Below, in pieces: positions 26,454-58,104 of a stretch of 64,000 nt of DNA (position 1 is the stretch's first letter; the number at the start of each line of letters is the position of its first letter). A program made the position numbers and the translations under genes. The notes beneath the pieces are model-generated. The model had not been told where the DNA came from, made no database searches, and saw only the letters and a program-made list of their open reading frames with translations. Source of the stretch: Actinomycetota bacterium (GTDB lineage Bacteria > Actinomycetota > Acidimicrobiia > Acidimicrobiales > JAFATL01); NCBI GenBank assembly GCA_041166085.1, contig JBEEFP010000050.1, forward strand, positions 15,114 through 79,113, given 5' to 3'.

Positions 26454-26858
26454 ATGCTCGTCGTCGCCATCGTGGGCCTGTTCACCGTCGACTTCGGCGA
26501 CGACAACAACGTGGCCACGGGCCCCGGCGGAACCACCACGACCGAGTTCCCCGGCACGACTGCCACGACGGCAGGCACTGCGACGACCCAACCCAGCTCG
26601 GCGACGACCCAGGGCACCACCGCGACGACGAGCGCACCCGCCACAACCCAGGCCACCACCGCCACCACAACGGCCGTCGGCGGCACCGCCACCACCGCGC
26701 CCGGCAGCGGCCTCGGCACGGGCGGCACCGGCCAGGCCGGTCAGGGCCCGCTGGCCACCTCGGGCGGCACCGACATGATGGTGCCCGCCATCCTCCTCGC
26801 CCTGGTGGGGATCTTCGGCTGGCGGGTCAGCCGACGGGGAGCGCCGGCGGAGCGCTGA
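26454..26858 (+). CDS. Thr-rich secreted/surface protein with C-terminal sortase-like sorting signal (LATSG + TM + RVSRRG)
   Basis: 134 aa. It has a hydrophobic N-terminus and a ~90-aa Thr/Ala/Gly-rich low-complexity region. The C-terminus is GPLATSGGTDMMVPAILLALVGIFGWRVSRRG, which resembles the LAxTG class E sortase signal. Confidence 0.6.
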   Translation: MLVVAIVGLFTVDFGDDNNVATGPGGTTTTEFPGTTATTAGTATTQPSSATTQGTTATTSAPATTQATTATTTAVGGTATTAPGSGLGTGGTGQAGQGPLATSGGTDMMVPAILLALVGIFGWRVSRRGAPAER

Positions 26859-28242
26859 GCGCCTCGCCGGTCCCCTCTTCCACGCCGTCGGACTCGGCTC
26901 GCCCCTGGCGGCCGCGCCGACGCCCCTTGCGCTCCAACGGCGGTACCGCGAGAAGCAGGACGAAGAGGGGCAGCATCTGGACGCGCTGCCTGGCAAGGAT
27001 GCCGAAGTTGCCGATGCTGCCGAAGGCGAGACAGAACACGAACGTGTAGCTGCCGACGAAGGCCAGGTACGGCACCCGCACCATCATCCGGATCGCCGCA
27101 GCGATGCGGCGCCAGCCGCGGATCGTGAGGAGGAGCAGGAACGACGCTTCGACCGCGGTACCGAGCGCGAGTGGCGTGCCAGCCTCGAAGGGGAACGGGC
27201 GGAACAGCACGGTGACGATCGCGACGGGTGCCTGCGCGGGGTTGGTGGCCTTGACCGCGGTGAACTCAGAACCGGACTTCGAGGTCTGGGCCTGCGTGCG
27301 CGTCAGGGCGGCGTCGACACCCTCGGCGTCGAAGCTGTCGAGGTTGAACTTCTGGGCCACGCCACCGATCACGACACTCCCGACAACGAGGAGGACGACG
27401 ATGCCGAGACCCTTGACGAGGATGTTGGTGGGCAACCGCTTGACGGGTCGACGCAACAGGAACGCTGCCGTCAGCCCGACGAAGAGCATCAGGGTGATGT
27501 GGGGACGGCACGCGGCTGAGCCGAGGAGCCCAGCGCCGGTCCACAACACGCCGCGTGGCTTGGCCTTCAGCAGCAGGGCGACGCCATACGCGGTGGCACC
27601 GACCGTCAGCACCATCCATGCCTCCTTGCCGATGCTGGATGGCCAGAACAGCGTCGATGGCAGGAAGAACAGCAGGAAGAAGTAGCGACGGGAGTCGAGC
27701 TCGGGACAGGCCACGCGCATGGCGCGGTAACAGAGGTACACACCCAGGAACGAGAACCACCCGAACACGAAGAAGCCGCCGAGCTTGGTCGGATCGGTGA
27801 TGCTGAAGACGATGCCGGTCACGATCTTCAGGAACCCCGTGCCGATGAACTTGCCGACGTCGACCGAGTAGTCCCCGGCACGGAACTGGTCGGCAAGCGA
27901 GCGGCCGGCGCCGTAGTACTCGGTGGCGTCGCTCTTGCCGTGATACAGCCCGTAGATCATCACGAACCGGGCCAGGATCCCGATGGCCTTCACCCCGAGC
28001 ACGGTCGGCGCGAGGCGCACCATGAGGTCGTCGCCCTCGCGCCGAGCGGTGCGCAGCATGAACGGAAGCGTGATGGCTGCGAGCAGCGGCCCGATGAGCA
28101 TCGCCGGCCAGACGTCGTAGGTCGTGCGCTCCATGGCCCACGCGAACACGCCCATGTAGGCGATGAGGATCGCGCCTCCGACAACCACCTCGAACCGCGG
28201 CAGCCGCAGGCCGAGCTCGGCTGACAAGGGGCGGGTGGCCAT
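26827..28242 (-). CDS. Polytopic membrane protein, O-antigen polymerase/ligase (Wzy)-like (putative)
   Basis: 471 aa with about 10 or more hydrophobic spans. It is the last gene of the GT/BY-kinase operon, with a TGATG overlap to the upstream GT4. The functional assignment rests on context and topology only. Confidence 0.5.
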   Translation of the reverse strand: MATRPLSAELGLRLPRFEVVVGGAILIAYMGVFAWAMERTTYDVWPAMLIGPLLAAITLPFMLRTARREGDDLMVRLAPTVLGVKAIGILARFVMIYGLYHGKSDATEYYGAGRSLADQFRAGDYSVDVGKFIGTGFLKIVTGIVFSITDPTKLGGFFVFGWFSFLGVYLCYRAMRVACPELDSRRYFFLLFFLPSTLFWPSSIGKEAWMVLTVGATAYGVALLLKAKPRGVLWTGAGLLGSAACRPHITLMLFVGLTAAFLLRRPVKRLPTNILVKGLGIVVLLVVGSVVIGGVAQKFNLDSFDAEGVDAALTRTQAQTSKSGSEFTAVKATNPAQAPVAIVTVLFRPFPFEAGTPLALGTAVEASFLLLLTIRGWRRIAAAIRMMVRVPYLAFVGSYTFVFCLAFGSIGNFGILARQRVQMLPLFVLLLAVPPLERKGRRRGRQGRAESDGVEEGTGEALSAPPALPVG

Positions 28243-29345
28243 CAGCGCGTCACCTCGGCATAGACCTCGAGGGTTCGAGCGACCGCTGGTGCGATGTCGT
28301 AGCCCGCTCCGGTCGTCGCCGCCGCCGACCCGAGCGCGTTGCGGAGCGCGGCGTCCTCCAGCACCTTCCCCAACGCAACCGCGAGGCCGGCCGCGTCACC
28401 GGGAGGGACGAGAAGCCCGTCCTCGCCGTGCGTCACCACTTCGGGCACGCCCCCCACGGCGGTTGCCACGCACGCCAGTCCCGACGCCATGGCCTCGAGC
28501 AAGGCGATCGGCAGCCCTTCGAAGCGGGAGCTGAGCACGAACACATCGAACCCGGCCAAGAGATCGGGGACGTCGTCACGCAGACCGAGGAAATGCACGC
28601 GACCCTCGAGCCCGGCGGCTGTCACCTGCCGGCGAACGGCGTGTTCCTCAGGACCGGTGCCGACCAGCGCGAGCTCGGCCTCGGGATGGTCGCGACGCAA
28701 CTGCGCGAACGCGGTGATGAGTGTGGCGTGGTCCTTCTTCGGCGTGAAGTTCCCGACGGTGCCCACGACCGGCACGCCTTCGGCGATGCCGAGAACGGCA
28801 CGAGCACCGGCGCGATCGCCCGCCCCGGTGATCGCGTCCACGTCGATGCCATGGACGAGCACTTCGACGGGGGGACGACCCGGCCGGCGGGGTGTGATCG
28901 ACGCCGCCACCGCCGAAGAGACGGCAAAGGCGCGAGTGTTGCGGGCATAGGTGAGGGCGTTGGCCTTGGCCGTGAGCGGCCGGTACCGCTCCCAGAGGTT
29001 GTGCTCGGTGTGCACGAGCCGCACTCGGCGGGGCGCCACGAGACGCGCCGCGACCGCGGGGACGGGCATGTGGGTGTGCACAATGTCGTAGTTCCCGGTG
29101 CGGATGAGCTTGCGCAGTCGCCACACCCACCGCAAGTCGGCGGGTCCGCCACCGCCGAGACAGTGCACCGGCACCTTGCGTTCGACCAGGGCCGGGACCA
29201 GCGCGTCCTTCCATGGCAGGACGTAGGCGACCTCGACGGCGACGACTGCCGGGTCGATGTGGCGGATGCTGTCGACGGCGAGTTGCTCGGCGCCGCCCCG
29301 CCCCAGGCCCTTGAGGAGCCAGAGCGCGCGGAGAGGCACGGTCAC
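28242..29345 (-). CDS. Glycosyltransferase family 4 (GT-B)
   Basis: The N-terminus LWLLKGLGRGGAEQLAVD is followed by a C-terminal EGLPIALLEAMASGLACVAT (EX7E region). The start is re-set to the GTG at 29345, 10 nt after the BY-kinase stop. Confidence 0.75.
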   Translation of the reverse strand: MTVPLRALWLLKGLGRGGAEQLAVDSIRHIDPAVVAVEVAYVLPWKDALVPALVERKVPVHCLGGGGPADLRWVWRLRKLIRTGNYDIVHTHMPVPAVAARLVAPRRVRLVHTEHNLWERYRPLTAKANALTYARNTRAFAVSSAVAASITPRRPGRPPVEVLVHGIDVDAITGAGDRAGARAVLGIAEGVPVVGTVGNFTPKKDHATLITAFAQLRRDHPEAELALVGTGPEEHAVRRQVTAAGLEGRVHFLGLRDDVPDLLAGFDVFVLSSRFEGLPIALLEAMASGLACVATAVGGVPEVVTHGEDGLLVPPGDAAGLAVALGKVLEDAALRNALGSAAATTGAGYDIAPAVARTLEVYAEVTR

Positions 29346-29355
29346 CCGCTGCCGG

Positions 29356-31572
29356 TCAGCGGTCCGACGGACCGAAAGGGGGCGCCGACGGGATCGCAGC
29401 GTCAACGGCCACGTCGGCGATCACGTCCTCGGGGTCGTCGAGACTCACGGTTTCGGGAGCCGCGACGGGGCCCTCGGCGGCCGGCGGCGGGGGCGAGAAC
29501 GGACTCGGCTCGGCGCGCGGAGGAGGGGCCGGCTGCTGCTGTTGGGGACGCGCCGCGACCGTGGCCGCCGGAGGCCGAGGCGGCTGCGGTTGGGGAGCGG
29601 GCGGCGCGGCCTGCGGTGCAGGCTGGGGCGTCGCGGGAGCGGGTGGGGTCGGCCGCTGCTGCTGCACGTTCTGCTGCTGCTGCGGAACGGGCTTCGGGCC
29701 CGCGGGCTGCGGGGCGGCGGCGACCTTCGCGGCGGCTGGGGCGGCCGCCGGAGGTTCGGCCGGCAGCGTGGCAACCGCAGGTCGACCCTGCTGCGGACGC
29801 GAGCCCCCCTTCTGCTTCCGCTTCTTGCCGCCCTGGCCGCCACCACTCGACGGCGGACGGTTGGCAGCCGCGCCCTCGGGGCGGGGACGGGTGGGCCGCG
29901 ACGCGGTATCGGGCCGACGACGGCGCCGGAAGAACCCGGCCAGACCGCGGCTTCGACCGGACGAGTAGTAGTAGTAGTAATAGCCGTGGGCGGCCGGCGC
30001 ATCGGCGCCACCCACCAGCACGACGCCCTGCAGGGGCGCACCAACGCGACGCAGGCGCTCAGCCGCGAGCTCGGCCGAGGGATAGCTGGTCTTCCCACCA
30101 CGTGCGACGAGCACCACCTGGTCCACGATCGGCACGACGTCGAGGGCGTCGTTGATGGCGAGGATCGGCGCGGTGTCCAGGATGACGACGTCGGCCAATC
30201 GGCGGGCGCCGGCGACGAGCTCGGTGGCGAGGGGGAACAGCTCGGAGGGACGGTCGACCGACTGGCCGGCGGTGATGAGACGCACGCCCGGTACCGAGGT
30301 CGAGCGGGCCAGCTTCTCGAGGTTCATCGGCGAGCCGCTGTGGGCGGCGAGGATCGCGTCACTGAGGCCGGGCGAGTCGGAGACGCCCAGGTAGCGCTGC
30401 GCACGCGGGTGGCGGAAGTCGCAGTCGAGCACGAGCACCGATCGGCCCGCCTCGGCGAAGCTGGCGGCCAGGTTCACGGCCGTCGTGGTCTTGCCCTCGC
30501 CGGGGTTGGCGGACGACACCAGGATCATCAGGTCACTGACCTCGATGGCGGGCGTGTGGCTCGTGACGTGCTCGCCATTGCCACTGCTGTGCGATGCCTG
30601 CGGGTGCGGCCGCATGAGCACGAGCGAGGTCCGCAGTGTTCGGTACGCCTCGGCGATCATCGACGAAGGATCGACGGCGGTCAGCACCTCGGGCCGGCGG
30701 CGGAGGCGCAGGGGCAGGATGGGAACATCGGAGAGCACGGGGGCGCCGAACGCCGCCTCCGCGACCTCCTTTGTTCCGATGCGCAAGTCGAACCGCTGCA
30801 CGATCAGCGCCAGGGCGAGACCGAGGAGGAGCCCGAGCGCGGCAGCCAGCGCGATGCGGCCAAGACGACTCGTGGGCGCGCGGAAGCGGCTGGCCGGCGC
30901 CAGCTTGGCGTGGGCCGTCTCCAGCGAGCTCAGACCCGAGGTGGGCGTCCCTGAGATGAGCTGGAGCTCGGCGTAAGCCTGGCCGTATTCCCGGAGCAGG
31001 GCGTCGCGCTGCGCGATGAGCGCGGCCTGTCCGGCCAAGGGCGTCTTGGCGATGCGCGCCTCGAGCTGCGTGACCTGGGTCTGGATGGTTTGGATGCGCT
31101 TGTTCGTCGCGTCGACGAGCTGCTGCTGCTGCGAGAGCTGTCGACTGTCGAGCTCGACCAGCAGTTCCGTGGCGAACGCGTCCGCCAGCTGCTCGGCCTG
31201 TGCCGGCTTGCTCTGCGTCGAGGAGATGGTGATCGTGCGCGTGTCGGGGTTGGCCTCGACCTTGATCTGGCTGGCCAGCTTGGCGCTGTCGCCCTGATAT
31301 CCGACCCTCGCAGCGACGCGCTGGGTGACCTCTGCCCCGGTGGCGAGCTCGGCCGCCGCGGGCAGGGCGTTGGGCTGCAACGCACCCCCCGAGCGGTCAT
31401 TTCCCGTGGCCGGCGACGAAAGGATCAATCGGTGCTGCGCGACGTAGCGCTTCGGCGGACCCTTGGGGTGCGCGGGCGTGACCACGAACGTGACGACGAC
31501 CGCCGTCAGGATCGTGAAGGCGATGACGCGCCAGCGTCGCCGCAACGTTGTGAGGTAAAGGTCCGGCTGCAC
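29356..31572 (-). CDS. Polysaccharide co-polymerase (Wzz domain) fused to BY-type tyrosine autokinase, with long Pro/Gln/Ala-rich C-terminal tail
   Basis: Two TM segments flank a coiled periplasmic-type domain. Walker A NPGEGKTTTAVNLA, Walker A' VLVLDCDFRHP and Walker B VVILDTAPI are present, plus a Tyr cluster GYYYYYYSS. About 200 aa of P/A/Q-rich tail follow. The start is uncertain (GTG at 31572 or 31632, or ORF-track 31752). Confidence 0.8.
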   Translation of the reverse strand: MQPDLYLTTLRRRWRVIAFTILTAVVVTFVVTPAHPKGPPKRYVAQHRLILSSPATGNDRSGGALQPNALPAAAELATGAEVTQRVAARVGYQGDSAKLASQIKVEANPDTRTITISSTQSKPAQAEQLADAFATELLVELDSRQLSQQQQLVDATNKRIQTIQTQVTQLEARIAKTPLAGQAALIAQRDALLREYGQAYAELQLISGTPTSGLSSLETAHAKLAPASRFRAPTSRLGRIALAAALGLLLGLALALIVQRFDLRIGTKEVAEAAFGAPVLSDVPILPLRLRRRPEVLTAVDPSSMIAEAYRTLRTSLVLMRPHPQASHSSGNGEHVTSHTPAIEVSDLMILVSSANPGEGKTTTAVNLAASFAEAGRSVLVLDCDFRHPRAQRYLGVSDSPGLSDAILAAHSGSPMNLEKLARSTSVPGVRLITAGQSVDRPSELFPLATELVAGARRLADVVILDTAPILAINDALDVVPIVDQVVLVARGGKTSYPSAELAAERLRRVGAPLQGVVLVGGADAPAAHGYYYYYYSSGRSRGLAGFFRRRRRPDTASRPTRPRPEGAAANRPPSSGGGQGGKKRKQKGGSRPQQGRPAVATLPAEPPAAAPAAAKVAAAPQPAGPKPVPQQQQNVQQQRPTPPAPATPQPAPQAAPPAPQPQPPRPPAATVAARPQQQQPAPPPRAEPSPFSPPPPAAEGPVAAPETVSLDDPEDVIADVAVDAAIPSAPPFGPSDR
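29965..29982 (-). repeat. Trinucleotide repeat (plus strand GTAGTAGTAGTAGTAATA) encoding the Tyr6 cluster of the BY-kinase
   Basis: Read directly. The minus strand is TAT TAC TAC TAC TAC TAC = YYYYYY, a conspicuous AT-containing microsatellite in a GC-rich gene. Confidence 0.7.
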
Positions 31573-31652
31573 GATGCTCCGACTCGGGGGGACCGGGGTA
31601 TCGACCGATTTCCGGCGGTCGCCCCTTTCGACCAACTGGCAGGTTACCGCCT

Positions 31653-32753
31653 CTACGCCGCAGGCGGCCACACCCCCCCCGGATCGGCCACGGCGTCGAG
31701 CAGTTGTGCCCACGAGGCTGCGACCGCGCCCAGCTCGAAGCGTTCTGCGCACCGGCTCCGAGCGGCTGGGCCCATCTGCGCCGCGGCCGCGATGGCGGTT
31801 CGTAAGCCCCGCGCCAGCGCACCGACGTCCCCGGGGCTGACGAGCACGCCCGTGACCCCGTCGACGACGATCTCCGGGATGCCCCCGACGGCGCTGGCCA
31901 CCACCGGGACGCCAGCGAGGCCAGCCTCGATGGGCGCCGCCGGTAGGCCCTCCGTCCGGCTCGGAAGCACCAGCGCGTCTGCCGCCGCGTAGACGGGCAC
32001 GACATCGTCGAGCGACCCGAGGAAGTGGACGCGCCCGGGCGCCGCTCGCTCGGCCTCCGCGCGCAACGCCGCCTCGTCCGGGCCGTCACCTGCCACGACG
32101 AGCCGAACGCCTTCGATGGCCCCGATGGCGCGGATGGCGCTTCCCAGATCCTTCTCGCCGGACAGCGCGCCGACGTAGGCGACGACCGGTCCCTCCGCCG
32201 GGAGTCCGAGGGCGAGGCGGGCCTGGCCCCGATCGGCGGACGTCACGGCCAGGAGCCGCGCGCCCGGCACGCCGTTGGGGATCACCCGCATCCGCTCGGG
32301 CACGACGCCGTGACGACGCACGAGCTCGGCCCCGGCGGCGTCCCAGAGGCTCACGACCGCCGCGGCACGGTGGAGTGCGACGCGCACCCAGGCCCGCCGG
32401 TCGATGCGGGTCGACCAGAAGGCGGGGTCACCGATGGAGCGATACACGAAGGGCACGCCCGTACCCGCCGTCGCGACGGCTGCAGCCGGCAGGGTCGTGG
32501 ACCCGTGAGCCACAACCACCCTTGCGTGACGTACCCGGGCTCGGAGGCGCCGCAAGGTGCTCGGCGCAAGGCGCCGCGTGCCGAGGGTGGCGATCGGCAA
32601 TCGCGTCGGCGATGTTCCAGGTGCCAACGCCATCACGTCGCCGTGACGTCCCAGCGTTTCGAGCGCGGCGGCCAGCCCGACGGCAAAGACCTCGGCGCCT
32701 CGGTGATCCGTCGTCGTGACGACGTGGAGGATCCGGGGAGCTGTCCCGCGCAT
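31653..32753 (-). CDS. Glycosyltransferase family 4
   Basis: The N-terminus is MRGTAPRILHVVTTTDHRGAEVFAVGLAAALE. The C-terminal motif is PSRTEGLPAAPIEAGLAGVPVVASAVGGIPE. The start is re-set to Met54 (32753). Confidence 0.75.
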   Translation of the reverse strand: MRGTAPRILHVVTTTDHRGAEVFAVGLAAALETLGRHGDVMALAPGTSPTRLPIATLGTRRLAPSTLRRLRARVRHARVVVAHGSTTLPAAAVATAGTGVPFVYRSIGDPAFWSTRIDRRAWVRVALHRAAAVVSLWDAAGAELVRRHGVVPERMRVIPNGVPGARLLAVTSADRGQARLALGLPAEGPVVAYVGALSGEKDLGSAIRAIGAIEGVRLVVAGDGPDEAALRAEAERAAPGRVHFLGSLDDVVPVYAAADALVLPSRTEGLPAAPIEAGLAGVPVVASAVGGIPEIVVDGVTGVLVSPGDVGALARGLRTAIAAAAQMGPAARSRCAERFELGAVAASWAQLLDAVADPGGVWPPAA

Positions 32754-32784
32754 GGCGCGCAGCCTAGGGAGCGGCCGGCGACAT

Positions 32785-33963
32785 CTAGCGGGGCCGTCGA
32801 CCCGCGCGTTGGACCCGCTCGTAGAACGCGACCGTCCGGTCGGCCACGGGTCCGATCTCGAACCGATCGAGGAAGCGCTGCCGGGCCGCGTCGGCACGAC
32901 GGACAGCTCCATCGCGATCCGTCATGCAGAGCTCTATGGCCCGGGCCAGGGCGGACGGATCGGCTGCGGGCACCATGAGCGCTTCCTGCTCGTGCCGGAC
33001 CACCTCCCGCACCGCGGGGATGTCGCTGGCGACGATGGGTGCCTCGAGCGCCATGGCTTCGATCAGCACGCTGCCGAGGCCCTCCCAGCGCGACGGCACC
33101 ACGAACACGTCGGCGGCGGCGAGGAGGTCGGGCACGTCGTCGCGGGCGCCCAGGAGGGTCGTACTGGGGTCGAGTCCCGCATCGGCGACGAGCCGCTCGA
33201 GCTCGTGCGTTCGATTGCCGCGCCGACCCGCTATGACCAGGCGGGCGCCGCGGCTGCCCGCTAGGTCGGCCCAGGCGTGCACGAGCACATCCAGGCCCTT
33301 CTGCCACTCGTGGCGCGCGGCCGCCAGCACGAGTGGCTGACCGGGCGCCACCCCGACGGCACGACGGGCTGCCGCAGCCCGCTCAGGCGACCGCCGGCCC
33401 AGGACGGCTTCCTCGCGCCCGCGAGGGATGACGTCGATCCGCTCGCGCGGAATGCGCAGGCGATCACTCATCGCGATGGCGACGGTTTCGGTGATGGCGT
33501 GGAAGCGCACGACGGCTCGGCTCGTCATGGTGTCCAAGGCTCTCGCCGCCAGGAGACGCCGGCGCGAAAGGGAGCGGTCGGCGCGCTGTTCCTCCCCGTA
33601 AGGCACGTTGACCAGGCTCGAGACCACGGGAACGCGCGCCAGGCGCGCGGCGATCCGCCCGACCTGATCGGCCTCGAACAACGTCGTGTGGACGATGTCC
33701 GGGCGGCGATCACGTATCAGGGCGGCGACGGCTCGGAGCCATTGCACGCGACCACTTCCGCCGACGGCGTGCACCCGGATGTCGTGCTCGAGCAGGGCGG
33801 GGGCGAGCGGCGCTTCTGGTCGGAGATGGGCCACTTCGATGGCGATGCCCCTGTCCGCGAGTGCTGGCGCGAGCGCGACGAGCGACCGCTCCGCGCCCCC
33901 GGGCGCCAGGCTGTCGATCACGTAGAGGATGCCCGGGCGTGGCTCGGGTGACACCCGGGGCAT
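32785..33963 (-). CDS. Glycosyltransferase family 4
   Basis: The motifs ILYVIDSLAPGGAERSLVALA and PSRWEGLGSVLIEAMALEAPIVASDIPAVRE are present. It is the first gene of the minus-strand operon. Confidence 0.78.
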   Translation of the reverse strand: MPRVSPEPRPGILYVIDSLAPGGAERSLVALAPALADRGIAIEVAHLRPEAPLAPALLEHDIRVHAVGGSGRVQWLRAVAALIRDRRPDIVHTTLFEADQVGRIAARLARVPVVSSLVNVPYGEEQRADRSLSRRRLLAARALDTMTSRAVVRFHAITETVAIAMSDRLRIPRERIDVIPRGREEAVLGRRSPERAAAARRAVGVAPGQPLVLAAARHEWQKGLDVLVHAWADLAGSRGARLVIAGRRGNRTHELERLVADAGLDPSTTLLGARDDVPDLLAAADVFVVPSRWEGLGSVLIEAMALEAPIVASDIPAVREVVRHEQEALMVPAADPSALARAIELCMTDRDGAVRRADAARQRFLDRFEIGPVADRTVAFYERVQRAGRRPR

Positions 33964-33986
33964 CCTACGGATGCGACCATGGCCCG

Positions 33987-34817
33987 GTGCCAGGGCGTCT
34001 CCCCAACTTCTTGATCGTCGGTGCCATGCGATCGGGCACGACGTCGCTGGCCCGATACCTCGACGCCCACCCCGACGTGTTCCTCGCTCCGACCAAAGAG
34101 GTGCGATTCTTCGACCGTCACCACGAGCGCGGGCTCGATTGGTACCGCTCGCATTTCGCCGGTGCTGGCCAACATCCGCTGGTCGGCGAGGCCACGCAGA
34201 CGTACCTCTATGACCACGACGCCATGCAGCGGATGGCCGCCGCCGTCCCCGATGCCCGCTTGGTGGCCATCCTCCGCGATCCCGTCGACCGCGCCTACTC
34301 GCATTACTGGCTCAACAAGGCACGCGATCGCGAGCCGCTGAGCTTCGAGGACGCCCTCGCGGCAGAGCCCGAGCGGCTGGCGCGGGGCGACCTGGACTCA
34401 CGCTTCTTCTACTCATATGTCGACCGCGGCCGATATGTGCACCAGATCGACCGGCTGGAGCGCCTGTATCCGCCGGGCAGGGTGCACCTGATTCTCTTCG
34501 ACGACCTGCGTGACCGGGCCCCCGACACCTACGCCGGCGTCCTGCGGTTCCTCGGAGCCCGTCCCTTCACGCCCGACAACCTCGGGCGCGCGGTGAACAC
34601 CTATACGTCGTTCCGCTCGGTGCGGCTGCGACGGCTGGCCCGGAGGTTGCCGGGCCGGGCGCGGGACGCAGTCGGTCGCATCAACGCACAACGCGAGTCG
34701 TACCCACCCCTCGACCCTGGACTGCGGGCCCAGGTCGCGGCCTGCTTCGCAGACGACAACGCCGCGCTCGCTGAGCGGCTCGCGCGCGATCTCTCGCTTT
34801 GGAGCCGGCCAGCGTGA
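33987..34817 (+). CDS. Sulfotransferase (PAPS-dependent; family A)
   Basis: The 5'-PSB loop is LPNFLIVGAMRSGTTSLARYLDAHPDV, and the 3'-PB motif is LRDPVDRAYSHY. The start is re-set to the in-frame GTG at 33987, 23 nt from the divergent GT4 start. Confidence 0.8.
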   Translation: MPGRLPNFLIVGAMRSGTTSLARYLDAHPDVFLAPTKEVRFFDRHHERGLDWYRSHFAGAGQHPLVGEATQTYLYDHDAMQRMAAAVPDARLVAILRDPVDRAYSHYWLNKARDREPLSFEDALAAEPERLARGDLDSRFFYSYVDRGRYVHQIDRLERLYPPGRVHLILFDDLRDRAPDTYAGVLRFLGARPFTPDNLGRAVNTYTSFRSVRLRRLARRLPGRARDAVGRINAQRESYPPLDPGLRAQVAACFADDNAALAERLARDLSLWSRPA

Positions 34818-47520: not shown

Positions 47521-47528
47521 GCGTGACC

Positions 47529-49430: not shown

Positions 49431-49496
49431 ACACTAGGAGGAGCCACCTGCGGCCCCTTCGGGGGGCGCAAGCCCGCCCCTAGACTGCGGGGGGTC

Positions 49497-50474
49497 ATGG
49501 CCAAAGTACTCCTGTCCTGCGTCGGTGAAAACGCACCGATGTGGCACAACAAGATGGAGAACCTGGTGCTGTCGATGCGACTCTTCGGTGGGTCGCTGTC
49601 GGGCTGCCCCGTGGTCGTGAACGTGGTCGAGAGCGTCGACCCCGAGTTCCGGGAACGCATGGCCCGTTGGGACGCGGAGGTGCGTGTGGTCGCGCGCGTC
49701 GACACGCGGTTGCCGGTCGCCAACAAGCTCCACGTCCTTGACCTCGCCACCACGGACGCCTTTGACATCGTGCTCATGCTCGATTGTGACGTGATCGTCA
49801 TGGGCGACGTCGCGCCCGAACTCGGCTCCGGCACCCTGCGCGGTCTTCCCGCCGGGCGGAGCCACATCAGCGCCGCCGCGTGGAGCCGGCTCTACGCCGC
49901 CCTCGGCATCGCCGAGCCCGCGCCTGACTGGGTCCTCTCGGTCAGCGGCGAGCGCTCGCACCCTTACGTCAACAGCGGCGTGCTCTTCGTGCCGCACGCG
50001 CTCTGCGCGCCCCTACGGGAGGGGTGGTACGGCCACATGCAGTGGCTGCTCGGTCCCGAAGGTGTCGAGCTCCTCGGTCGGCCGGTGCACCGCGACCAGA
50101 TTCCCCTCGCCCTCACCCTCGCCACCCTTGCGGTGCAGGTCGATCCACTGCCTCGCAACCTCAACCTCTCGACCACCGCCGCCCAGCCCGTCCCTGCCCA
50201 GTTCCGCTCGCAGGACGGTCCCCCGTTCATCCTGCACTACCACCGGAGCATCGACAGCGACGGTTTTCTCACCAGGTCGCCCCGCCGTGCCGTCAACCCG
50301 TGGCTCGACGAATTCAACGCGGCGCGCGCCGACGCGCTCGGCATCCCGTACCACGGCCTCGGCTCGCTGCCGGCCCGGAGCCAGGTCGCGGCGTTTTTGA
50401 AGTCCCGAGGGTGGGACCGGCGTATCCCGCGGCGCCCCCGTCGTCAGGGACGGCCCGCGGGCTCCTCGTCGTAG
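49497..50474 (+). CDS. Nucleotide-diphospho-sugar transferase, GT8-like (putative)
   Basis: The sequence from the ATG at 49497 begins MAKVLLSCVG. It has the DxD motif LMLDCDVIVMGD and a later YVNSGVLFV, resembling GT8 signature blocks. The assignment is tentative. Confidence 0.5.
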   Translation: MAKVLLSCVGENAPMWHNKMENLVLSMRLFGGSLSGCPVVVNVVESVDPEFRERMARWDAEVRVVARVDTRLPVANKLHVLDLATTDAFDIVLMLDCDVIVMGDVAPELGSGTLRGLPAGRSHISAAAWSRLYAALGIAEPAPDWVLSVSGERSHPYVNSGVLFVPHALCAPLREGWYGHMQWLLGPEGVELLGRPVHRDQIPLALTLATLAVQVDPLPRNLNLSTTAAQPVPAQFRSQDGPPFILHYHRSIDSDGFLTRSPRRAVNPWLDEFNAARADALGIPYHGLGSLPARSQVAAFLKSRGWDRRIPRRPRRQGRPAGSSS

Positions 50475-51325
50475 ACGTAACCCGAGAAGAAGTCGTACGC
50501 GGCGGACCGCCGCGCCACCGCCCCGATGAGCTCGGGACTCCACTCTCGGTCGAAGCGACTGCGGTGCGGGGTTTGATAGATGATGCCCGCGCACGCGTCC
50601 AGGTAGTCCGGATGAGGCTCGATACCGAGAAACGTGCACAGGCCCGCGACCGCTGCCCGGGGATCAGCGATGAGATCCTCGTGGCGGAGGTCGTGCCACG
50701 CCTCGGGCGGCAGCAACGAGCGGATGGTGACGACTCCGTCGGCGAGTCGGAAGAAGCGGTCGGCCGTGCGGTCCAGCGGAGAGCGCGTGCGCTTGGACAT
50801 CGTCGTGATGCTGTCGTACGGGTTGCGCAGGACGTGCAGGCACCGAACAGGCACCTTCACCAGGTCGCGCAGGTTCGCGAGGAGTTGCGGGTCGGCACCA
50901 ATGGCTTGACTGCTGCCCTTGCCCCGCTTGTCCCCGATGACACGGAGCGTGCGGTACCGACCCTGCCACTGACCGGGCACGGCGTAGTCGTACTCGCGCT
51001 TGGTGCCTGTGCGACCCTTCTTCTCGAAGCGGGCGTCGGAGAGGAAGATCATCCCGAACAGCTGCGCGCGACTGAAGCCGTTCTCCACGTAACGAAGGGC
51101 GTTCAGCTGGTGGGACACCACGACGTCGGGGTGGGCGTTGAGCAGCGAGCCCACCAGGCTGTGGCCGCTGCGTGGGTACCCGGCGAACATGAGGTAGCGC
51201 TCGATCTGGTCGAAGTCGGCCGCGTGACGACCGGCCACGCGCCTGGAAAGAAGCCAGTCGCGGGCGACGCCGACGGACGTGAGGGCCCTGCTGATCCGCA
51301 GCTTGGTCTCGAGCATTCGGGTCAT
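50444..51325 (-). CDS. Sulfotransferase-like protein (family B paralog 3)
   Basis: The motifs MFAGYPRSGHSLVGSLLNAHPDVVVSHQLNALRY, RVIGDKRG, VLRNPYDSITTM and DLRHEDLIADP are present. The ATG at 51325 is preceded by GGAGGGAGG. Confidence 0.7.
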   Translation of the reverse strand: MTRMLETKLRISRALTSVGVARDWLLSRRVAGRHAADFDQIERYLMFAGYPRSGHSLVGSLLNAHPDVVVSHQLNALRYVENGFSRAQLFGMIFLSDARFEKKGRTGTKREYDYAVPGQWQGRYRTLRVIGDKRGKGSSQAIGADPQLLANLRDLVKVPVRCLHVLRNPYDSITTMSKRTRSPLDRTADRFFRLADGVVTIRSLLPPEAWHDLRHEDLIADPRAAVAGLCTFLGIEPHPDYLDACAGIIYQTPHRSRFDREWSPELIGAVARRSAAYDFFSGYVYDEEPAGRP

Positions 51326-51447
51326 GCGGGGTCCTCCCTCCGACGCGCAGCCTCTGGACGAGCGAACCACGCTATCCGGCAATGGGTCGGGCACAACCAG
51401 CCGGTAGCTTGCCTCCCGTGAGCAAGCGGCCCCGTCCACGCGCGGCA

Positions 51448-52611
51448 ATGCCGCGGCTGCTGCACATCACGACCACCGACATCAGCCTCGAGTTGCTGCT
51501 GGGACCCCAACTGCGCGCCTTCGCAGCGGCCGGCTACGACGTGCACACCGCGTCCGCACCGGGCCCCTACGTCGCACGACTCGAGGCCGATGGCGTCCGC
51601 CACCACCCGCTGCGACATGCGACTCGCGCCATGGCGCCGCGTCGCGACGCGCAGGCGCTGGTCGAGCTCTGGCGTCTCTTCCGCCGGCTCGACCCCGACA
51701 TCGTGCACACCCACAACCCCAAGCCGGGCCTCTATGGGCGAATGGCCGCTCGCGCGGCACGCGTGCCCGTCGTGGTGAACACCGTGCACGGTCTCTACGC
51801 CGTCCCTGAGGACTCGCGTGCCAAGCGGACCGTGGTCTACGGGCTCGAGCGCGTCGCAGCCCGCTGCTCCGACGCCGAGCTCGTGCAGAACCCGGAGGAC
51901 CTCGAGGTTCTGGCCGGGCTCGGAATCCCCCGTTCCAAGCTGCACCTGCTCGGGAACGGGGTCGACCTGAGGCGCTTCGATCCGGCCGCGGTGCCACTCG
52001 AACGGCGGGAGGCGGTACGTGCGGAACTGGGGCTCGGACCAGACGACGTGGTGTGCGGGGCCGTGGGACGGCTGGTTGCGGAGAAGGGCTATCGTGAGCT
52101 CTTCGCGGCAGCCGCAATCCTCGCGTCCACCGCACCGCAGGTGAAGATGGTGGTCGTCGGGCCGGACGAGCCCGACAAGGCTGACGCAATCACCGAAGAG
52201 CAGCTTGGTCAAGCACGTGCGAGCGGGGTCAGGCTGCTCGGAGCCCGGGACGACATGGAAGACCTCTACACCGCGATGGACATCTACGTGCTGGCGTCGC
52301 ACCGCGAGGGCTTCCCCCGATCGGCGATGGAAGCGGCGGCCATGCGGCTGCCGGTGATCGCGACCGACATCCGGGGGTGCCGCCAGGTGGTCGAGTCAGG
52401 CCGCACCGGGACCCTCGTGCCTCCCCGTCGCGCCGACGCCTTGGCCACCGCCATCGCCGCGCTGGCAAGCGACCAGTCCCTCCGCCGGGCGATGGGCCAG
52501 AGCGGCCGGGACAAGGCGCTGCGGGAGTTCGACGACCGGCGCGTCATCGACATCACGCTCGGGATCTACGACCAGCTCGGCGCCCGCCCGGTCGCGGCGT
52601 CGCAACGATGA
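51448..52611 (+). CDS. Glycosyltransferase family 4
   Basis: The motifs MPRLLHITTTDISLELLLGPQL, HTHNPKPGLYGRMAA and SHREGFPRSAMEAAAMRLPVIATDIRGCRQ are present. Confidence 0.78.
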   Translation: MPRLLHITTTDISLELLLGPQLRAFAAAGYDVHTASAPGPYVARLEADGVRHHPLRHATRAMAPRRDAQALVELWRLFRRLDPDIVHTHNPKPGLYGRMAARAARVPVVVNTVHGLYAVPEDSRAKRTVVYGLERVAARCSDAELVQNPEDLEVLAGLGIPRSKLHLLGNGVDLRRFDPAAVPLERREAVRAELGLGPDDVVCGAVGRLVAEKGYRELFAAAAILASTAPQVKMVVVGPDEPDKADAITEEQLGQARASGVRLLGARDDMEDLYTAMDIYVLASHREGFPRSAMEAAAMRLPVIATDIRGCRQVVESGRTGTLVPPRRADALATAIAALASDQSLRRAMGQSGRDKALREFDDRRVIDITLGIYDQLGARPVAASQR

Positions 52612-53792
52612 GACGCCCCGCTGTCCTCGGCGGCACGCCCGCGTTCGCGCCCGCTTTGCCGTTCGCCCGGCCGACCACCCCGCCCCTCGAACGGGTGACG
52701 GCGCGGCTGCAGCCGTCCTACGACCGGGGCATCCTCACCAACGGGCCCCTCGTGCGAGAGCTCGAGGCCGCCGCCGCCGACCGGCTCGGCGTGGCCCATG
52801 TCGTCGCCGTCGCGAACTGCACCTCCGGACTCATCCTCACGCTGCGCGCCCTCGACCTCGACGGCGCGGTGGTGCTGCCGAGCTTCACCTTCTCGGCGTC
52901 TGCCCACGCGGTGGCGTGGAACGGGCTCACCCCCTTGTTCGCCGAGTGCCTTCCCGAGAGCCTCCAGGTCGACGCGCAGGACGCGGCAGCGCGAGCGAAG
53001 GCGGCACAGCGGCCCGTCGCGGCGCTGCTGGCCACCCACGTGTTCGGCGCGCCGGCCCCCGTCAAGGAGCTGGAGGCCCTGGCCGACCAACTCGGCGTGC
53101 CACTCGTGTTCGACGCGGCCCACGCCATCGGGTCCGAACACGGCGGCCGTCCGGTCGGCGGCAACGGCTCGGCCGAGGTCTTCAGTCTCAGCCCCACGAA
53201 GCCGGTGGTCGCCGGTGAGGGTGGACTGGTCGCGACCAACCGCGACGACATCGCGGCCTTCGTGCGCATCGGGAGGGACTACGGCAACCCCGGCAACTAC
53301 GACACCCAATTCGTCGGGCTGAACGCGCGCATGTCCGAGCTCCACGCGGCGGTCGCCCTCGAGTCGCTGGCCGGCCTCGACCAGAGCCTGGACGTGCGGA
53401 GGACGCTGGCGGAGCGCTACCGCGTCGGCCTGCAGGCGATCCCCGGCGTCGGCGTCCAGCACATCGCCCGGGATGACCGGTCCACGTTCAAAGACCTCAC
53501 CATCACCATCGATCCCGAGCACTTCGGGCTGTCGCGCGACCACCTCGTGATCGCACTGGGCCAGGAGGGCATCGACACGCGGCTGTACTTCTCCCCGCCT
53601 GTACACCGTCACCAGGCCTATGCCCACCTGAAGAGTGAGGACCTCCCCGTCACTGACGAGGCAGCGGCGCGTGTTGTGAGCCTCCCCCTCTTCAACGCCA
53701 TGACGCTCGACGACGTCGACGGGGTCGTCCAGGCACTCGCCTCGCTGCAGAGCCATTCCGCGGAGATCCGCCCTCTGCTCGCCACCGCCTGA
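52608..53792 (+). CDS. DegT/DnrJ/EryC1/StrS family sugar aminotransferase (PLP-dependent)
   Basis: The motifs MRRPAVLGGTPAF, ANCTSGL and FSLSPTKPVVAGEGGLV (Lys for PLP) are present. The ATG at 52608 forms an ATGA overlap with the GT4 stop. Confidence 0.85.
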   Translation: MRRPAVLGGTPAFAPALPFARPTTPPLERVTARLQPSYDRGILTNGPLVRELEAAAADRLGVAHVVAVANCTSGLILTLRALDLDGAVVLPSFTFSASAHAVAWNGLTPLFAECLPESLQVDAQDAAARAKAAQRPVAALLATHVFGAPAPVKELEALADQLGVPLVFDAAHAIGSEHGGRPVGGNGSAEVFSLSPTKPVVAGEGGLVATNRDDIAAFVRIGRDYGNPGNYDTQFVGLNARMSELHAAVALESLAGLDQSLDVRRTLAERYRVGLQAIPGVGVQHIARDDRSTFKDLTITIDPEHFGLSRDHLVIALGQEGIDTRLYFSPPVHRHQAYAHLKSEDLPVTDEAAARVVSLPLFNAMTLDDVDGVVQALASLQSHSAEIRPLLATA

Positions 53793-53811
53793 AGGGCCAA
53801 GGCTTGAGCGC

Positions 53812-54848: not shown

Positions 54849-54867
<19 letters not shown>
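53812..54867 (+). CDS. Hypothetical polytopic membrane protein with Lys/Pro-rich N-terminal tail
   Basis: 351 aa. The N-terminus MIELAGKKDKQKTPTSAPAPTTHRPRDNAPKPAQREQQ is followed by about 8-9 Ala/Val/Leu-rich spans. It is the last gene of the GT4-DegT operon. No motif was recognised. Confidence 0.5.
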
Positions 54868-56597
<1,730 letters not shown>

Positions 56598-56665
56598 GAG
56601 GGGGCGATGGTAGTGACGTACCGGACGGCCGCGGTCGCGCCCGTGCGTGAGCGAAGCTCTGCGGA

Positions 56666-57406
56666 TCACCCAGCGGTAACGGCCAGCACCCGCTCGACCA
56701 GCTCGGGTCGACAGATGAGCAGGTCGGGCAGCCACGGGTCGGCGCGGTTGTAGAGCAGCGGCGAGCCGTCGAGGCGCGACACATGCAGCCCGGCGGCTGC
56801 CGCCACTGCGACAGGCGCGCACGAGTCCCACTCGTATTGGCCGCCGCTGTGGGCGTACACGTCGACGTCACCGCGCACGACCGCCATGGCCTTGGCGCCG
56901 GCCGAGCCCATCTCGACCAGGTCGCCGTGGAGGTGCTCGGCCAGCTCGAGGGCGACCGCGGGCGGGCGGGTGCGGCTCACGACCAGACGCGGAGGGCCGT
57001 CGTGGGCCGGCGGCGGCGGTGGAGGGGCGTCGGTGGCCAGCACCACGCCGAGAGCGGGAAGTCCGACGGCGCCGGCGATGGGCAGGCCGGCGGCGGTGAG
57101 GGCGACGTGGACGGCCCAGTCGCTGCGGCCCGCCTCGCCGAACTCCCGCGTCCCATCGAGGGGGTCGACGATCCAGACCCGTTCGGCGTCGAGGCGGGCG
57201 GGGTCGGCGGCGCCTTCCTCGGACAGGACGGCGTCATCCGGACGCAGCTCACCCAGCCGCTCCATCATCAGCTCGTGGGACGCGAGATCACCTTCGTCCT
57301 TCAGGGCCTTCGGGTCGGCGCCCGCGTCGAGCTTGGCCCGGATGGTGAGCAGCAGCGCGCCCGCCTCCTCGGCCACGAGCCGGGCAATCCGGTGGTCGTC
57401 GTCCAT
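56666..57406 (-). CDS. cysQ: 3'(2'),5'-bisphosphate nucleotidase (CysQ-type PAP phosphatase; IMPase superfamily)
   Basis: The motifs VLSEEG, WIVDPLDGTREF and YEWDSCAPVAV are present. The EWD and DGTxEF variants favour CysQ over SuhB. It is 246 aa. Confidence 0.7.
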   Translation of the reverse strand: MDDDHRIARLVAEEAGALLLTIRAKLDAGADPKALKDEGDLASHELMMERLGELRPDDAVLSEEGAADPARLDAERVWIVDPLDGTREFGEAGRSDWAVHVALTAAGLPIAGAVGLPALGVVLATDAPPPPPPAHDGPPRLVVSRTRPPAVALELAEHLHGDLVEMGSAGAKAMAVVRGDVDVYAHSGGQYEWDSCAPVAVAAAAGLHVSRLDGSPLLYNRADPWLPDLLICRPELVERVLAVTAG

Positions 57407-57441
57407 CGCCCCGACCCTAGGAGACGGCTGGTAGGACTTCG

Positions 57442-58104
57442 GTGGTGCCGCCGACCGAGCCCTCCCCCCGCGCCGGTGTCCCGATCGTCGTCTACGGCGG
57501 CGGCGGGCACGGGATCACCCTCATCGACGCCCTCCGCGTCATCGGCGGCTACGACGTGGCCGGCGTCATCGACGGCGGCCTCGCCCAGGGGAGCTCTCTG
57601 CTCGGCGTGGCCGTGCTGGGCGGCGCCGACGTCCTGACCGAGGTCAGGGCGGGCGGCATCGAACTGGCGGTGAACGCGGTGGGGTCGCTGCGCGACCTCG
57701 CACGGCGAGCCGCCATCTTCGAGGAGCTGACCGATGCAGGCTTCCGGTGCCCGACCGTCACGCATCCATCCGCGGTGCTCGACGCCAGTGCCGAGGTGGA
57801 GGACGGCGTGCACGTGCTGGCCCACGCCTACGTGGGCGCGGCCGCCGCTGTCGGGTTCGGTTGTGTGGTCAACACCGGCGCAGTGGTGTCCCACGGGTGC
57901 CGCATCGGCGCGTGCGCGAACATCTCCCCCGGCGCGCTGCTGGCGGGAGACGTGACCATCGGCGACCACGCCCTGGTCGGCATGGGGGCCAACATCAACA
58001 TCGGCCTGGCCATCGGCGCGGGCGCGCGCGTCGGCAATGGCGCAGTGGTCAAGGCCGACGTCCCCGACGGCGGCGTGGTGCGGGCCGGCGAGGTCTGGGG
58101 CTGA
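57442..58104 (+). CDS. NeuD/PglD-family sugar N/O-acetyltransferase (left-handed beta-helix)
   Basis: The N-terminal Rossmann-like region is VVYGGGGHGITLIDAL. Hexapeptide repeats follow (VGAAAAVGFGCVVNTGAVVSHGCRIGACANISPGALLAGDVTIGDHALVGMGANI). Confidence 0.75.
   Translation: MVPPTEPSPRAGVPIVVYGGGGHGITLIDALRVIGGYDVAGVIDGGLAQGSSLLGVAVLGGADVLTEVRAGGIELAVNAVGSLRDLARRAAIFEELTDAGFRCPTVTHPSAVLDASAEVEDGVHVLAHAYVGAAAAVGFGCVVNTGAVVSHGCRIGACANISPGALLAGDVTIGDHALVGMGANINIGLAIGAGARVGNGAVVKADVPDGGVVRAGEVWG

Follow-up and report, generated by a model that had tools for sequence, protein, structure and literature searches.

What does an actinobacterium make with nine sulfotransferases encoded in a single glycan locus? 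The question is raised by a 64-kb stretch of contig JBEEFP010000050.1 (referred to below as the window), whose locus proteins are deposited at NCBI under 'MAG: Actinomycetota bacterium' (MAG, metagenome-assembled genome; locus tags QOE35_1782 to QOE35_1801). A first-pass annotation, made from the sequence of the window, had read there nine sulfotransferases together with glycosyltransferases (GT), an exporter and a CysQ-type phosphatase, had taken the whole for a system producing a heavily sulfated glycan, and had named profile searches, structure prediction and comparison of synteny as the checks to be made. In the present analysis its observation was confirmed and its interpretation supported: the region between 26.8 and 59.4 kb probably directs the synthesis of a cell-surface glycan (an exopolysaccharide, a capsule or a wall-linked polymer) that bears sulfate at multiple positions. 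Animals and algae are the textbook sources of sulfated polysaccharides, and among bacteria such products are well established chiefly for cyanobacteria. For an actinomycete, a paper of 2026 put forward a sulfated exopolysaccharide (EPS) as a possibility and presented even that as new (PMC13390465).

Identification of the Nine Sulfotransferases

All nine open reading frames (ORFs) listed as ST1 to ST9 in Table 1 fall into sulfotransferase families at the positions and on the strands where the first-pass annotation had placed them. Each of them matches PF13469 (Sulfotransfer_3) with 45.4-126.9 bits at a cut-off of 27, and eight also exceed the cut-off of 22 bits for PF00685 (Sulfotransfer_1), the score of ST9 being 21.6 bits. 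Hidden Markov models (HMMs) built from the nine and scanned over the whole window returned exactly nine sulfotransferases, all of which lie within one uninterrupted block of 17.5 kb to the right of the arm of the locus that encodes a bacterial tyrosine autokinase (BY-kinase). Both binding motifs for 3'-phosphoadenosine 5'-phosphosulfate (PAPS) were found in nine proteins out of nine: the 5'-phosphosulfate loop G-x-x-[KR]-[SA]-G-[TH]-[TS] and, some 85-130 residues after this P-loop, a 3'-phosphate motif of the form R-x-P-x-[DE]-R..S, RNPxDxI[ST]T or RDGRDVALS. The pairs read GAMRSGTT and RDPVDRAYS in ST1, GYPRSGHS and RNPFDNIST in ST3, GRGRSGTT and RDGRDVALS in ST7, and GYPRSGHS and RNPYDSITT in ST9. 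The nine genes contain neither stops nor frameshifts, the PAPS-binding motifs are kept in every orthologue checked, and no hydrophobic or membrane segment was detected in any of the nine proteins, which are 270-335 residues long. By family membership and intact motifs, the nine ORFs are confirmed as sulfotransferases with a predicted PAPS-dependent activity.

Independent gene calls and precomputed Pfam matches were taken from JGI metagenome contig 3300049434 (Ga0467053_0000053), which is 147,265 bp long and on which the window occupies positions 20115-84114. The G+C content of the window is 70%, and raw ORF lists are therefore rich in spurious frames. For two of the sulfotransferases the starts chosen in the first-pass annotation, 33987 (ST1) and 47620 (ST7), are preferable to those of the public calls, which begin too late and drop either the strand before the P-loop (ST1, 33987-34011) or the P-loop itself (ST7, 47620-47683), so that these two proteins would appear truncated in automated annotation; the start at 33987 retains the conserved LPNF strand of ST1.

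Three Families of Sulfotransferases

The nine proteins form three families with less than 28% identity between them. Family A comprises ST1, ST2, ST4, ST5 and ST6, which are 30-49% identical to one another, ST2 and ST4 being the closest pair (49%). Its profile matched the structure of a bacterial sulfotransferase (3RNL) with 186 bits, the human heparan sulfate (HS) 3-O-sulfotransferases (3-OSTs) with 119-123 bits and the N-sulfotransferase domain of NDST1 with 113 bits, and 3RNL and the HS 3-OSTs were also the PDB matches of ST2. The alignment with the HS enzymes extends over about 190 residues and spans the 5'-phosphosulfate-binding loop, the glutamate of the E-x-x-F-F signature and the 3'-phosphate motif, which has the invariant form R-x-P-V-x-R-x-x-S throughout family A. 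The glutamate is likewise invariant (E44 in ST2 numbering) and is aligned with that of 'AEPHFFD' in 3-OST-3; we take this residue, common to the N-sulfotransferases and 3-OSTs, to be the catalytic base in family A, an assignment that does not extend to the other two families. The shared logic with animal heparan sulfate would be that of several regiospecific sulfotransferases decorating one glycan. In contrast, the HS enzymes are type II membrane proteins of the Golgi, whereas those of the locus are soluble cytoplasmic proteins of a bacterium, and no heparosan-type synthase, epimerase or N-deacetylase is encoded in the locus. The likeness is one of mechanism and is no evidence for a glycosaminoglycan (GAG).

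Family B (ST3, ST8 and ST9; 45-54% identity, with ST3 and ST8 as the closest pair at 54%) had the weakest sequence support of the three, and it was for this family that the sulfotransferase fold was modelled, families A and C being assigned by sequence matches to solved sulfotransferases. An AlphaFold model of ST8 calculated with 53 homologues reached a pLDDT of 93.9 (an earlier model, whose alignment held the three paralogues of the window only, had a pLDDT of 57 and was discarded). In a Foldseek search of the PDB, all of the top 50 matches of this model were PAPS-dependent sulfotransferases (E down to 3e-9, TM-score about 0.5), so that even the weakest family resembles enzymes of this class only. 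The fold neighbours include tyrosylprotein sulfotransferase (TPST) 2, the CurM sulfotransferase, Stf1, Stf9, 3-OSTs and cytosolic SULTs. Family C, represented by ST7, matched TPST1 with 65 bits and the OLS and CurM sulfotransferases with 40-50 bits.

CysQ and the Supply of PAPS

The CysQ-type phosphatase that had been read in the locus, an enzyme that would act on 3'-phosphoadenosine 5'-phosphate (PAP), proved to be a full-length homologue of the PAP phosphatase CysQ of Mycobacterium tuberculosis (5DJF; 220 bits, E 4e-64, residues 4-242 of 246). Its best NCBIfam model, TIGR01331, scored 110 bits, below the cut-off of 228.8, with HisN as the next (65.6 bits); this model appears to be tuned to proteobacterial CysQ. 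The metal-binding motifs of the inositol-monophosphatase superfamily, DPxDGT and WDxxA, can be read in the translation as VDPLDGT and EWDSCAP. In the relative L163 (see below) the protein is 85% identical and again adjacent to sulfotransferases; a PhoX phosphatase also adjoins CysQ there.

Genes of PAPS synthesis were found next to sulfotransferase clusters in several more distant relatives. In a distant Acidimicrobiales MAG (L042, 5179-8177) a run of three sulfotransferase genes leads directly into CysQ and a PUA_2/ATP-sulfurylase/APS-kinase fusion, in two further loci (L029 and L031) cysD and cysN come after the sulfotransferase cluster, and in L143 (5278-6567) a single ORF at the cluster encodes an APS kinase fused to a CysQ-type phosphatase. 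The CysC and CysD probes used in this search were Escherichia coli sequences and served as search probes only; seven ORFs picked with the CysC, CysD or CysQ probes in L029, L031, L042, L105 and L143 were rechecked with Pfam, and a match of the cysC probe in L118 was not used. Since PAPS genes stood near family-B sulfotransferases in 5 of about 160 loci, an enrichment is suggestive only, and the individual adjacent arrangements were relied on instead.

In M. tuberculosis PAPS feeds a sulfation branch consisting of Stf0-Stf3, CysNC and CysQ Rv2131c (PMC3141025), and with a CysQ of the same kind the locus would be expected to follow the same division of labour, PAPS serving the sulfotransferases and PAP being cleared by CysQ. 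Mycobacterial Stf1 and Stf9 stand among the fold neighbours of family B. Unlike the product presumed here, the mycobacterial products are sulfated glycolipids, made with polyketide synthase (PKS) and acyltransferase genes; moreover, the mycobacterial sulfotransferases are dispersed and CysQ is not clustered with them, whereas here nine are encoded in one locus.

Conservation and Selection

Closer relatives of the locus proteins (72-82% identity) were obtained with a word-indexed protein search. A contig from another metagenome (ENA contig ERZ534009 NODE_351, which yielded the loci L164 and L166) carries the whole locus beside the trigger factor gene tig, with nine sulfotransferases in the same order, the sulfotransferase block having been inherited as a unit. 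On ENA contig 'NM_farmland' (L163) the orthologues of seven, ST3-ST9, are kept, that of ST9 at another place, and two or three sulfotransferases are added. A third relative (L167; JGI 3300066008, Ga0604939_0001279, 1-7264), whose tig is 80% identical, has no sulfotransferase at the same site but a polysaccharide deacetylase, a beta-helix protein and homologues of the BY-kinase (44%) and of the polytopic protein encoded next to tig (41%). Because the first contig keeps the sulfotransferase block, the second alters it and the third differs, the block is, as far as gene order tells, a surface-glycan region of variable content, while its place on the chromosome is conserved.

Comparison of the nine sulfotransferases with their orthologues gave dN/dS values of 0.14-0.30, in the same range as those of AsnB, GT2a, DegT and tig, which places all nine genes under purifying selection. 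The orthologues are 64-81% identical and the paralogues at most 54%, so that the duplications would predate the split of the three lineages.

Density of Sulfotransferase Genes in Comparison with Other Loci

The number of sulfotransferases was compared with that in 73 loci of at least 14 kb, chosen for carrying a family-B sulfotransferase and counted within 10 kb to either side. One sulfotransferase was found in 26 of these loci, two in 29 and three to five in 17; an apparent six in the remaining one resulted from split frames, and the real maximum is five. The same frame in the window holds seven, and the whole locus nine. Chance is no issue for such a count. The density had been called unusual at the first reading, and it remains so when about 160 related loci are taken for comparison, as well as three published clusters: two sulfotransferases beside eight GTs in the xss locus for synechan of Synechocystis sp. 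PCC 6803, whose product bears two sulfates per eight sugars (PMC8205485), two in wps-1 of Actinoplanes missouriensis, with a predicted sulfated EPS whose sulfation the authors stress to be unverified (PMC13390465), and one in the putative GAG cluster of Pontiella. The accompanying statement that sulfated glycans are rare in bacteria is weakened by the size of family B, which has more than 4000 homologues over many phyla. Pattern scans of GTDB genomes and metagenomes located it in Acidimicrobiia, Rubrobacter, cyanobacteria, Balneolaceae, Planctomycetota, Myxococcota, Desulfobacterales, Binatia and archaea, all relatives from these scans being at most 58% identical.

Judged by gene content, the locus is an extreme variant of an already known locus type, real and conserved. 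A clade of uncultured soil actinobacteria keeps nine divergent sulfotransferases in one glycan locus under purifying selection, and thousands of family-B members stand beside glycan genes in many phyla, which suggests that glycan sulfation may be much more widespread among soil and sediment microbes than assumed. Such loci are candidate producers of the sulfated GAG-like polymers reported in the matrices of sludge and mats. The locus also offers a panel of predicted soluble bacterial carbohydrate sulfotransferases, five of them related to heparan sulfate enzymes, which is of relevance to chemoenzymatic sulfation.

A dense arrangement was also observed in a cultured organism, Rubrobacter marinus SCSIO 52915 (L033, NZ_CP045121.1, 3727140-3747988), in which five sulfotransferases lie within about 9 kb in the order Wzy_C, three tandem family-A sulfotransferases, GT4, a sulfotransferase similar to family C, WecG-TagA, GT4, family-B sulfotransferase and Wzx. 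Pairs of a family-C and a family-B sulfotransferase are carried by isolates of Gracilimonas and Rhodohalobacter. We found no published work on glycan sulfotransferases of Acidimicrobiia or Rubrobacter, the R. marinus locus included.

Proposed Assembly and Export of the Glycan

The family matches of the remaining glycan genes (Table 1) bear out most of the earlier assignments, namely the Wzm/Wzt exporter, the BY-kinase, AsnB, two GT2 enzymes and the amino-sugar genes (DegT and NeuD); of six GT4 enzymes claimed, Pfam finds five. The overlapping wzm and wzt genes (35711-37727) lie inside the glycan locus, and Wzt has a C-terminal extension of about 150 residues without a family match, no Wzt_C domain being detectable with Pfam. 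The BY-kinase, a fusion with a polysaccharide co-polymerase, has transmembrane segments at residues 73-96 and 296-323, the Walker A motif GEGKTT, ParA and CbiA P-loop matches and a tyrosine cluster (HGYYYYYYSS); it scored 98.9 bits against TIGR01007, just below the cut-off of 108.05, and 95 bits against Wzc (PRK11519). AsnB is 80% identical in L164 and missing from L163, and by analogy with known polysaccharide loci its likely role would be the amidation of a sugar acid. Homologues of the GNAT acetyltransferase (50-59% identity) adjoin ST7-like genes in at least eight Acidimicrobiia loci. As this gene is a module partner in the relatives, the locus is taken to extend to about 59.4 kb, so that it probably covers 26.8-59.4 kb (about 33 kb) with the GNAT gene at its right end.

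From these genes the following scheme can be proposed. Eight GT-type proteins (five GT4, two GT2 and one protein with a DxD motif) would assemble a lipid-linked chain at the cytoplasmic face of the membrane, including an N-acetylated amino sugar (DegT and NeuD) and probably an amidated sugar acid (AsnB). Before export, the nine soluble cytoplasmic sulfotransferases would each transfer sulfate from PAPS to a different acceptor position, giving a product that may carry several distinct sulfate esters; some of the sulfates could be sulfamates, since the heparan sulfate enzymes to which family A is similar include N- as well as O-sulfotransferases. CysQ would hydrolyse the inhibitory by-product PAP and so relieve product inhibition. 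The finished chain would leave through the Wzm/Wzt exporter, the BY-kinase/co-polymerase and the polytopic proteins may take part in assembly or in the control of chain length, and two conserved predicted lipoproteins may act on the product or bind it outside the cell. By analogy with synechan, eight GT-type proteins and nine sulfotransferases might correspond to about one sulfate per sugar.

What the Locus May Produce

Several facts weigh against this scheme. The source organism is uncultured. The nearest solved relatives of families B and C are sulfotransferases that modify peptides and polyketides, not carbohydrates. CysQ is missing from the border of the locus in L164, and neither cysD/N nor sat nor cysC was found in the 73 kb examined of the 147-kb contig, the gene calls consulted outside the window included (contig positions 22.8-93.2 kb). 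No priming phosphoglycosyltransferase, no Wzx flippase of the MOP family and no 4,6-dehydratase was found among the locus proteins. The genes change strand often and make up about ten transcription units, and two logics of export and assembly, an ABC exporter and a BY-kinase, occur together, so that the locus may serve more than one product.

It is from the last two points that the main alternative starts. The region could be a composite of two or more glycan systems, one with the BY-kinase and the polytopic protein beside tig and the other with Wzm/Wzt, the sulfotransferases being divided among them so that no single product is exceptionally sulfated. Apart from the two kinds of assembly machinery and the many divergent and convergent gene pairs, which point to multiple transcription units, it can be argued that the left arm (the Thr-rich protein, the polytopic protein and the BY-kinase) occurs in L167 with other partners and no sulfotransferase, and that sub-modules occur separately in other MAGs. 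One of these, GNAT, ST(C), DxD protein, GT4, ST(B), ST(B) and ST(A), is a recurrent module of Acidimicrobiia in loci of the Ilumatobacteraceae type, and another, ST5-like, Wzm, Wzt and ST8-like, was found in L010. On the other hand, the nine sulfotransferases form one uninterrupted block right of the BY-kinase arm, L164/L166 show this block passed on as a whole, and a single exporter is detectable, with no second member of a flippase or polymerase family. We regard the composite reading as possible but doubtful.

That some or most of the sulfotransferases have acceptors other than glycans, such as a glycolipid or lipid (as in the mycobacterial sulfolipids), a tyrosine of a peptide or protein, or a small metabolite, is less likely than the composite reading and seems unlikely in itself. 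It would agree with the best solved relatives of ST7 (the tyrosylprotein and the CurM/OLS polyketide sulfotransferases), with TPST2, the CurM enzyme and Stf1/Stf9 as the nearest folds of family B, and with a conserved Thr-rich, possibly wall-anchored protein encoded at the border of the locus. Yet this protein has no tyrosine, genes for PKS or non-ribosomal peptide synthetases, for lipid synthesis and for precursor peptides are absent from the locus, glycosyltransferase or export genes border every sulfotransferase gene, carbohydrate sulfotransferases are the closest relatives of five among the nine enzymes, and in R. marinus as well as in other phyla families B and C recur beside GT4, Wzx, Wzy_C and WecG. 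Recent duplication followed by decay, with several copies inactive or redundant and few effective sulfation activities, is also less likely than the composite reading, and indeed very improbable, for although paralogue pairs exist (ST2/ST4 and ST3/ST8) and the sulfotransferase content varies (L163 with its added copies and relocated ST9), the paralogues are old, their duplications being older than the split of the three lineages, and the genes are intact, with motifs kept in the orthologues checked and low dN/dS.

The reading as a locus for one multiply sulfated surface glycan is therefore preferred, as a genomic prediction. Its boldest form, in which soil actinobacteria akin to Acidimicrobiia would use nine regiospecific sulfotransferases to make a GAG-like polymer with about one sulfate per sugar and with both O- and N-sulfates, maybe a 'proteoglycan' on the Thr-rich wall protein with the polytopic protein as a ligase of glycan to protein or wall, is rather unlikely. 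If it were true, the variable sulfotransferase content among the relatives would be the sulfation-code equivalent of serotype variation.

Comparison with Characterized Polysaccharide Systems

The best-characterized locus for a sulfated exopolysaccharide in bacteria, xss for synechan, shares with the present one many GTs, sulfotransferases of the PF13469/PF00685 type belonging to distinct subfamilies within one cluster, and a polysaccharide co-polymerase component. It differs in the number of sulfotransferases (two against nine), in export (Wzx/Wzy against Wzm/Wzt with no Wzx detected) and in location, a cyanobacterial megaplasmid against a chromosomal site beside tig in an actinobacterium; CysQ is absent from xss, and the regulators XssS/R/Q are absent from the locus. 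The wps-1 cluster comes from the same phylum and is also of the EPS type with two sulfotransferase families, one of them similar to the HS sulfotransferases, and an adjoining sulfate-activation gene is needed for its phenotype, which parallels the linkage with CysQ or PAPS genes in the locus and its relatives. Unlike the locus, wps-1 has two sulfotransferases and not nine, employs a Wzx/Wzy/Wzz pathway and belongs to a cultured actinomycete, where it is connected with sporangium formation.

A further parallel is provided by the ABC-dependent O-polysaccharide pathways, for which we take E. coli O9a, with WbdD and Wzm/Wzt, as the example of a system with multidomain enzymes modifying or terminating the chain. 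Wzm/Wzt with a C-terminally extended Wzt and a presumed modification in the cytoplasm before export are common to both, and in large fusion proteins the homologues of the DxD protein are combined with methyltransferase, sulfotransferase, TPR and, once, Wzt_C domains. Unlike in E. coli O9a, no Wzt_C domain is detectable in the locus, the modifying enzymes are separate and far more numerous, and the host is of the Gram-positive type.

Locus Proteins without Family Assignment

Two labels of the first-pass annotation were not upheld. The 471-residue polytopic membrane protein, called Wzy-like, gave no match in Pfam (Wzy_C, PF04932, included) or NCBIfam, and no Pfam domain was found in the best 120 of its more than 1500 homologues, the named ones of which are mostly from Acidimicrobiales MAGs; membership in Wzy was rejected, as no Pfam, NCBIfam or PDB profile supports it. 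The protein is 79% identical in L166. The protein labelled GT8-like, for which we use the name DxD protein, matched nothing in Pfam, NCBIfam or the PDB, either as a single sequence or as an 11-sequence profile, including PF01501 and the solved GT8 structures, and its assignment to GT8 was likewise rejected. Its family counts 708 homologues at 50% clustering (P0361-P0510 among them) with the invariant residues K77, D96, D98, G161, W177, Q201 and H247, and conservation of its DxD, FNSG and H-x-H motifs makes a GT-A-like enzyme plausible. Among 43 diverse homologues, Sulfotransfer_3 was found in 10 and methyltransferase domains in 15, while PF01501 was not among the 25 most frequent families; TPR domains and, once, a Wzt_C domain also occur in the larger proteins of the family. 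By their domain composition, these fusions are an independent link of an uncharacterized domain to glycan modification, and the family seems to be a glycan-modification or glycosyltransferase domain not described so far.

For the predicted lipoprotein encoded between ST6 and ST7, only sub-threshold matches to Kelch and GloVer repeats were obtained; it is 66-71% identical in L163 and L164, where it occupies the same position. The FG-GAP/ASPIC-repeat protein has a lipoprotein-like N-terminus and is 69-70% identical in the same two relatives.

The small Thr-rich protein encoded at the left border has an N-terminal transmembrane segment, a mucin-like middle part rich in Thr, Ala, Gly and Pro, and a C-terminus composed of '(G/Q)PLATSG' (PLATSGG in the window), a hydrophobic stretch and a basic tail, which looks like a sortase-type wall-sorting signal (LAxTG-like). 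It is kept beside the 471-residue polytopic protein in three lineages, those of the window, of L166 (9171-9746, minus strand) and of L167 (6821-7264, minus strand), the last of which is free of sulfotransferases. The protein may be an O-glycosylated component of the wall.

Table 1. Features of the glycan locus and its left border, with positions in the window and the matches on which the assignments are based.
Feature	Coordinates	Strand	Evidence and remarks
tRNA-Pro(tgg) and tRNA-Gly(tcc)	26218-26386		between tig and glycan locus
Thr/Ala/Gly-rich protein, 134 aa	26454..26858	+	gene called in public record; neighbour of locus
Polytopic membrane protein, 471 aa	26827..28242	-	about 10 transmembrane (TM) segments by hydropathy
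GT4a	28242..29345	-	PF00534 144.5, PF13439 66 bits
Polysaccharide co-polymerase/BY-kinase fusion (Wzc-like)	29356..31572	-	long Pro/Gln-rich tail
GT4b	31653..32753	-	PF00534 109 bits
GT4c	32785..33963	-	PF13692 125, PF00534 122.5 bits
ST1, family A (HS-sulfotransferase-like)	33987..34817	+	PF13469 63.8, PF00685 53 bits; orthologue 78% identical, dN/dS 0.18
ST2, family A	34799..35683	+	PF13469 55.8, PF00685 36.7 bits; dN/dS 0.27
Wzm, ABC-2 exporter permease	35711..36562	+	PF01061 51.3 bits; six hydrophobic segments; 58% identical in L010
Wzt, exporter ATPase	36546..37727	+	PF00005 72.7 bits; 89% identical in L163
GT4d	37799..38842	+	PF13692 67.4, PF00534 66 bits
ST3, family B	38832..39668	-	PF13469 45.6, PF00685 25.2 bits; orthologues 80-81% identical, dN/dS 0.15-0.16
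GT2a	39665..40594	-	PF00535 110 bits
GT2b	40621..41514	+	PF00535 87.7 bits
ST4, family A	41511..42380	+	PF13469 54.3, PF00685 44 bits; dN/dS 0.21-0.25
AsnB-type glutamine amidotransferase	42394..44241	+	PF00733 353, GATase_7 121.7 bits
ST5, family A	44264..45151	+	PF13469 63.4, PF00685 50.3 bits; dN/dS 0.19-0.20
ST6, family A	45156..46040	+	PF13469 47.7, PF00685 45 bits; dN/dS 0.27-0.30
Predicted lipoprotein, possible beta-propeller	46048..47520	-	signal peptide and LVAAAC lipobox
ST7, family C (TPST/CurM-sulfotransferase-like)	47620..48567	+	PF13469 126.9 bits; dN/dS 0.17-0.26
ST8, family B	48549..49430	-	PF13469 45.4 bits; dN/dS 0.14-0.17
DxD-motif protein, putative glycosyltransferase	49497..50474	+	earlier label 'GT8-like'
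ST9, family B	50444..51448	-	PF13469 50 bits; dN/dS 0.21-0.22
GT4e	51448..52611	+	PF00534 116, PF13439 81 bits; 51-55% identical in Acidimicrobiia module loci
DegT/DnrJ/EryC1 sugar aminotransferase	52608..53792	+	PF01041 296 bits
Polytopic membrane protein, 351 aa	53812..54867	+	about 10 TM segments; no family match; 55-56% identical in L163 and L164
FG-GAP/ASPIC-repeat protein	54849..56597	-	PF13517 130, PF01839 84, PF07593 24 bits
CysQ-type PAP phosphatase	56666..57406	-	PF00459 106 bits
NeuD/PglB/VioB-family hexapeptide sugar N-acetyltransferase	57442..58104	+	TIGR03570 159.9 bits (cut-off 160.8)
GNAT acetyltransferase, probable right-hand end of locus	58445..59437	-	PF13527, PF00583

Chromosomal Neighbourhood

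The named homologues of the trigger factor are 63-69% identical and come from Acidimicrobiales or Acidimicrobiia MAGs, so that the actinobacterium probably belongs to the class Acidimicrobiia. On the left the locus is bordered by the tRNA-Pro and tRNA-Gly genes and then by tig-clpP-clpX-valS-folC-ndk-mreBCD-pbp2-rodA, and on the right by an ars cluster, PiT and pst-pho genes. Rfam and tRNA scans detected nothing inside the glycan locus itself. An insertion of the locus as a genomic island at the tRNA genes was considered and could not be demonstrated: a search of the window for an att-like direct repeat of the tRNA-Pro/tRNA-Gly region at the far border of the locus gave none, and there is no discontinuity in G+C content, the G+C content at third codon positions dropping only a little, from 0.87-0.95 in the neighbouring genes to 0.83-0.92 in the locus, although L167 has different genes at the same site.

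Some minor features of the flanks may be added. The 5' end of tRNA-Pro is repeated over 24 nt at 26139-26162, 79 nt upstream of the intact gene, and this repeat may be a truncated tRNA copy. The right flank (59434-63725) encodes an ArsC of the LMW-PTP type fused to DUF2630, a MIP channel, ArsR and a glyoxalase-fold protein, and is followed further along the contig by PiT with a PhoU_div protein, ppx, pstSCAB-phoU and phoRP. The gene at the position of valS (20202-21953, minus strand) encodes only 583 residues, with tRNA-synt_1 as the sole recorded Pfam match and no anticodon-binding domain listed; as it has the same length in L167, it may represent a shortened or split class I aminoacyl-tRNA synthetase.

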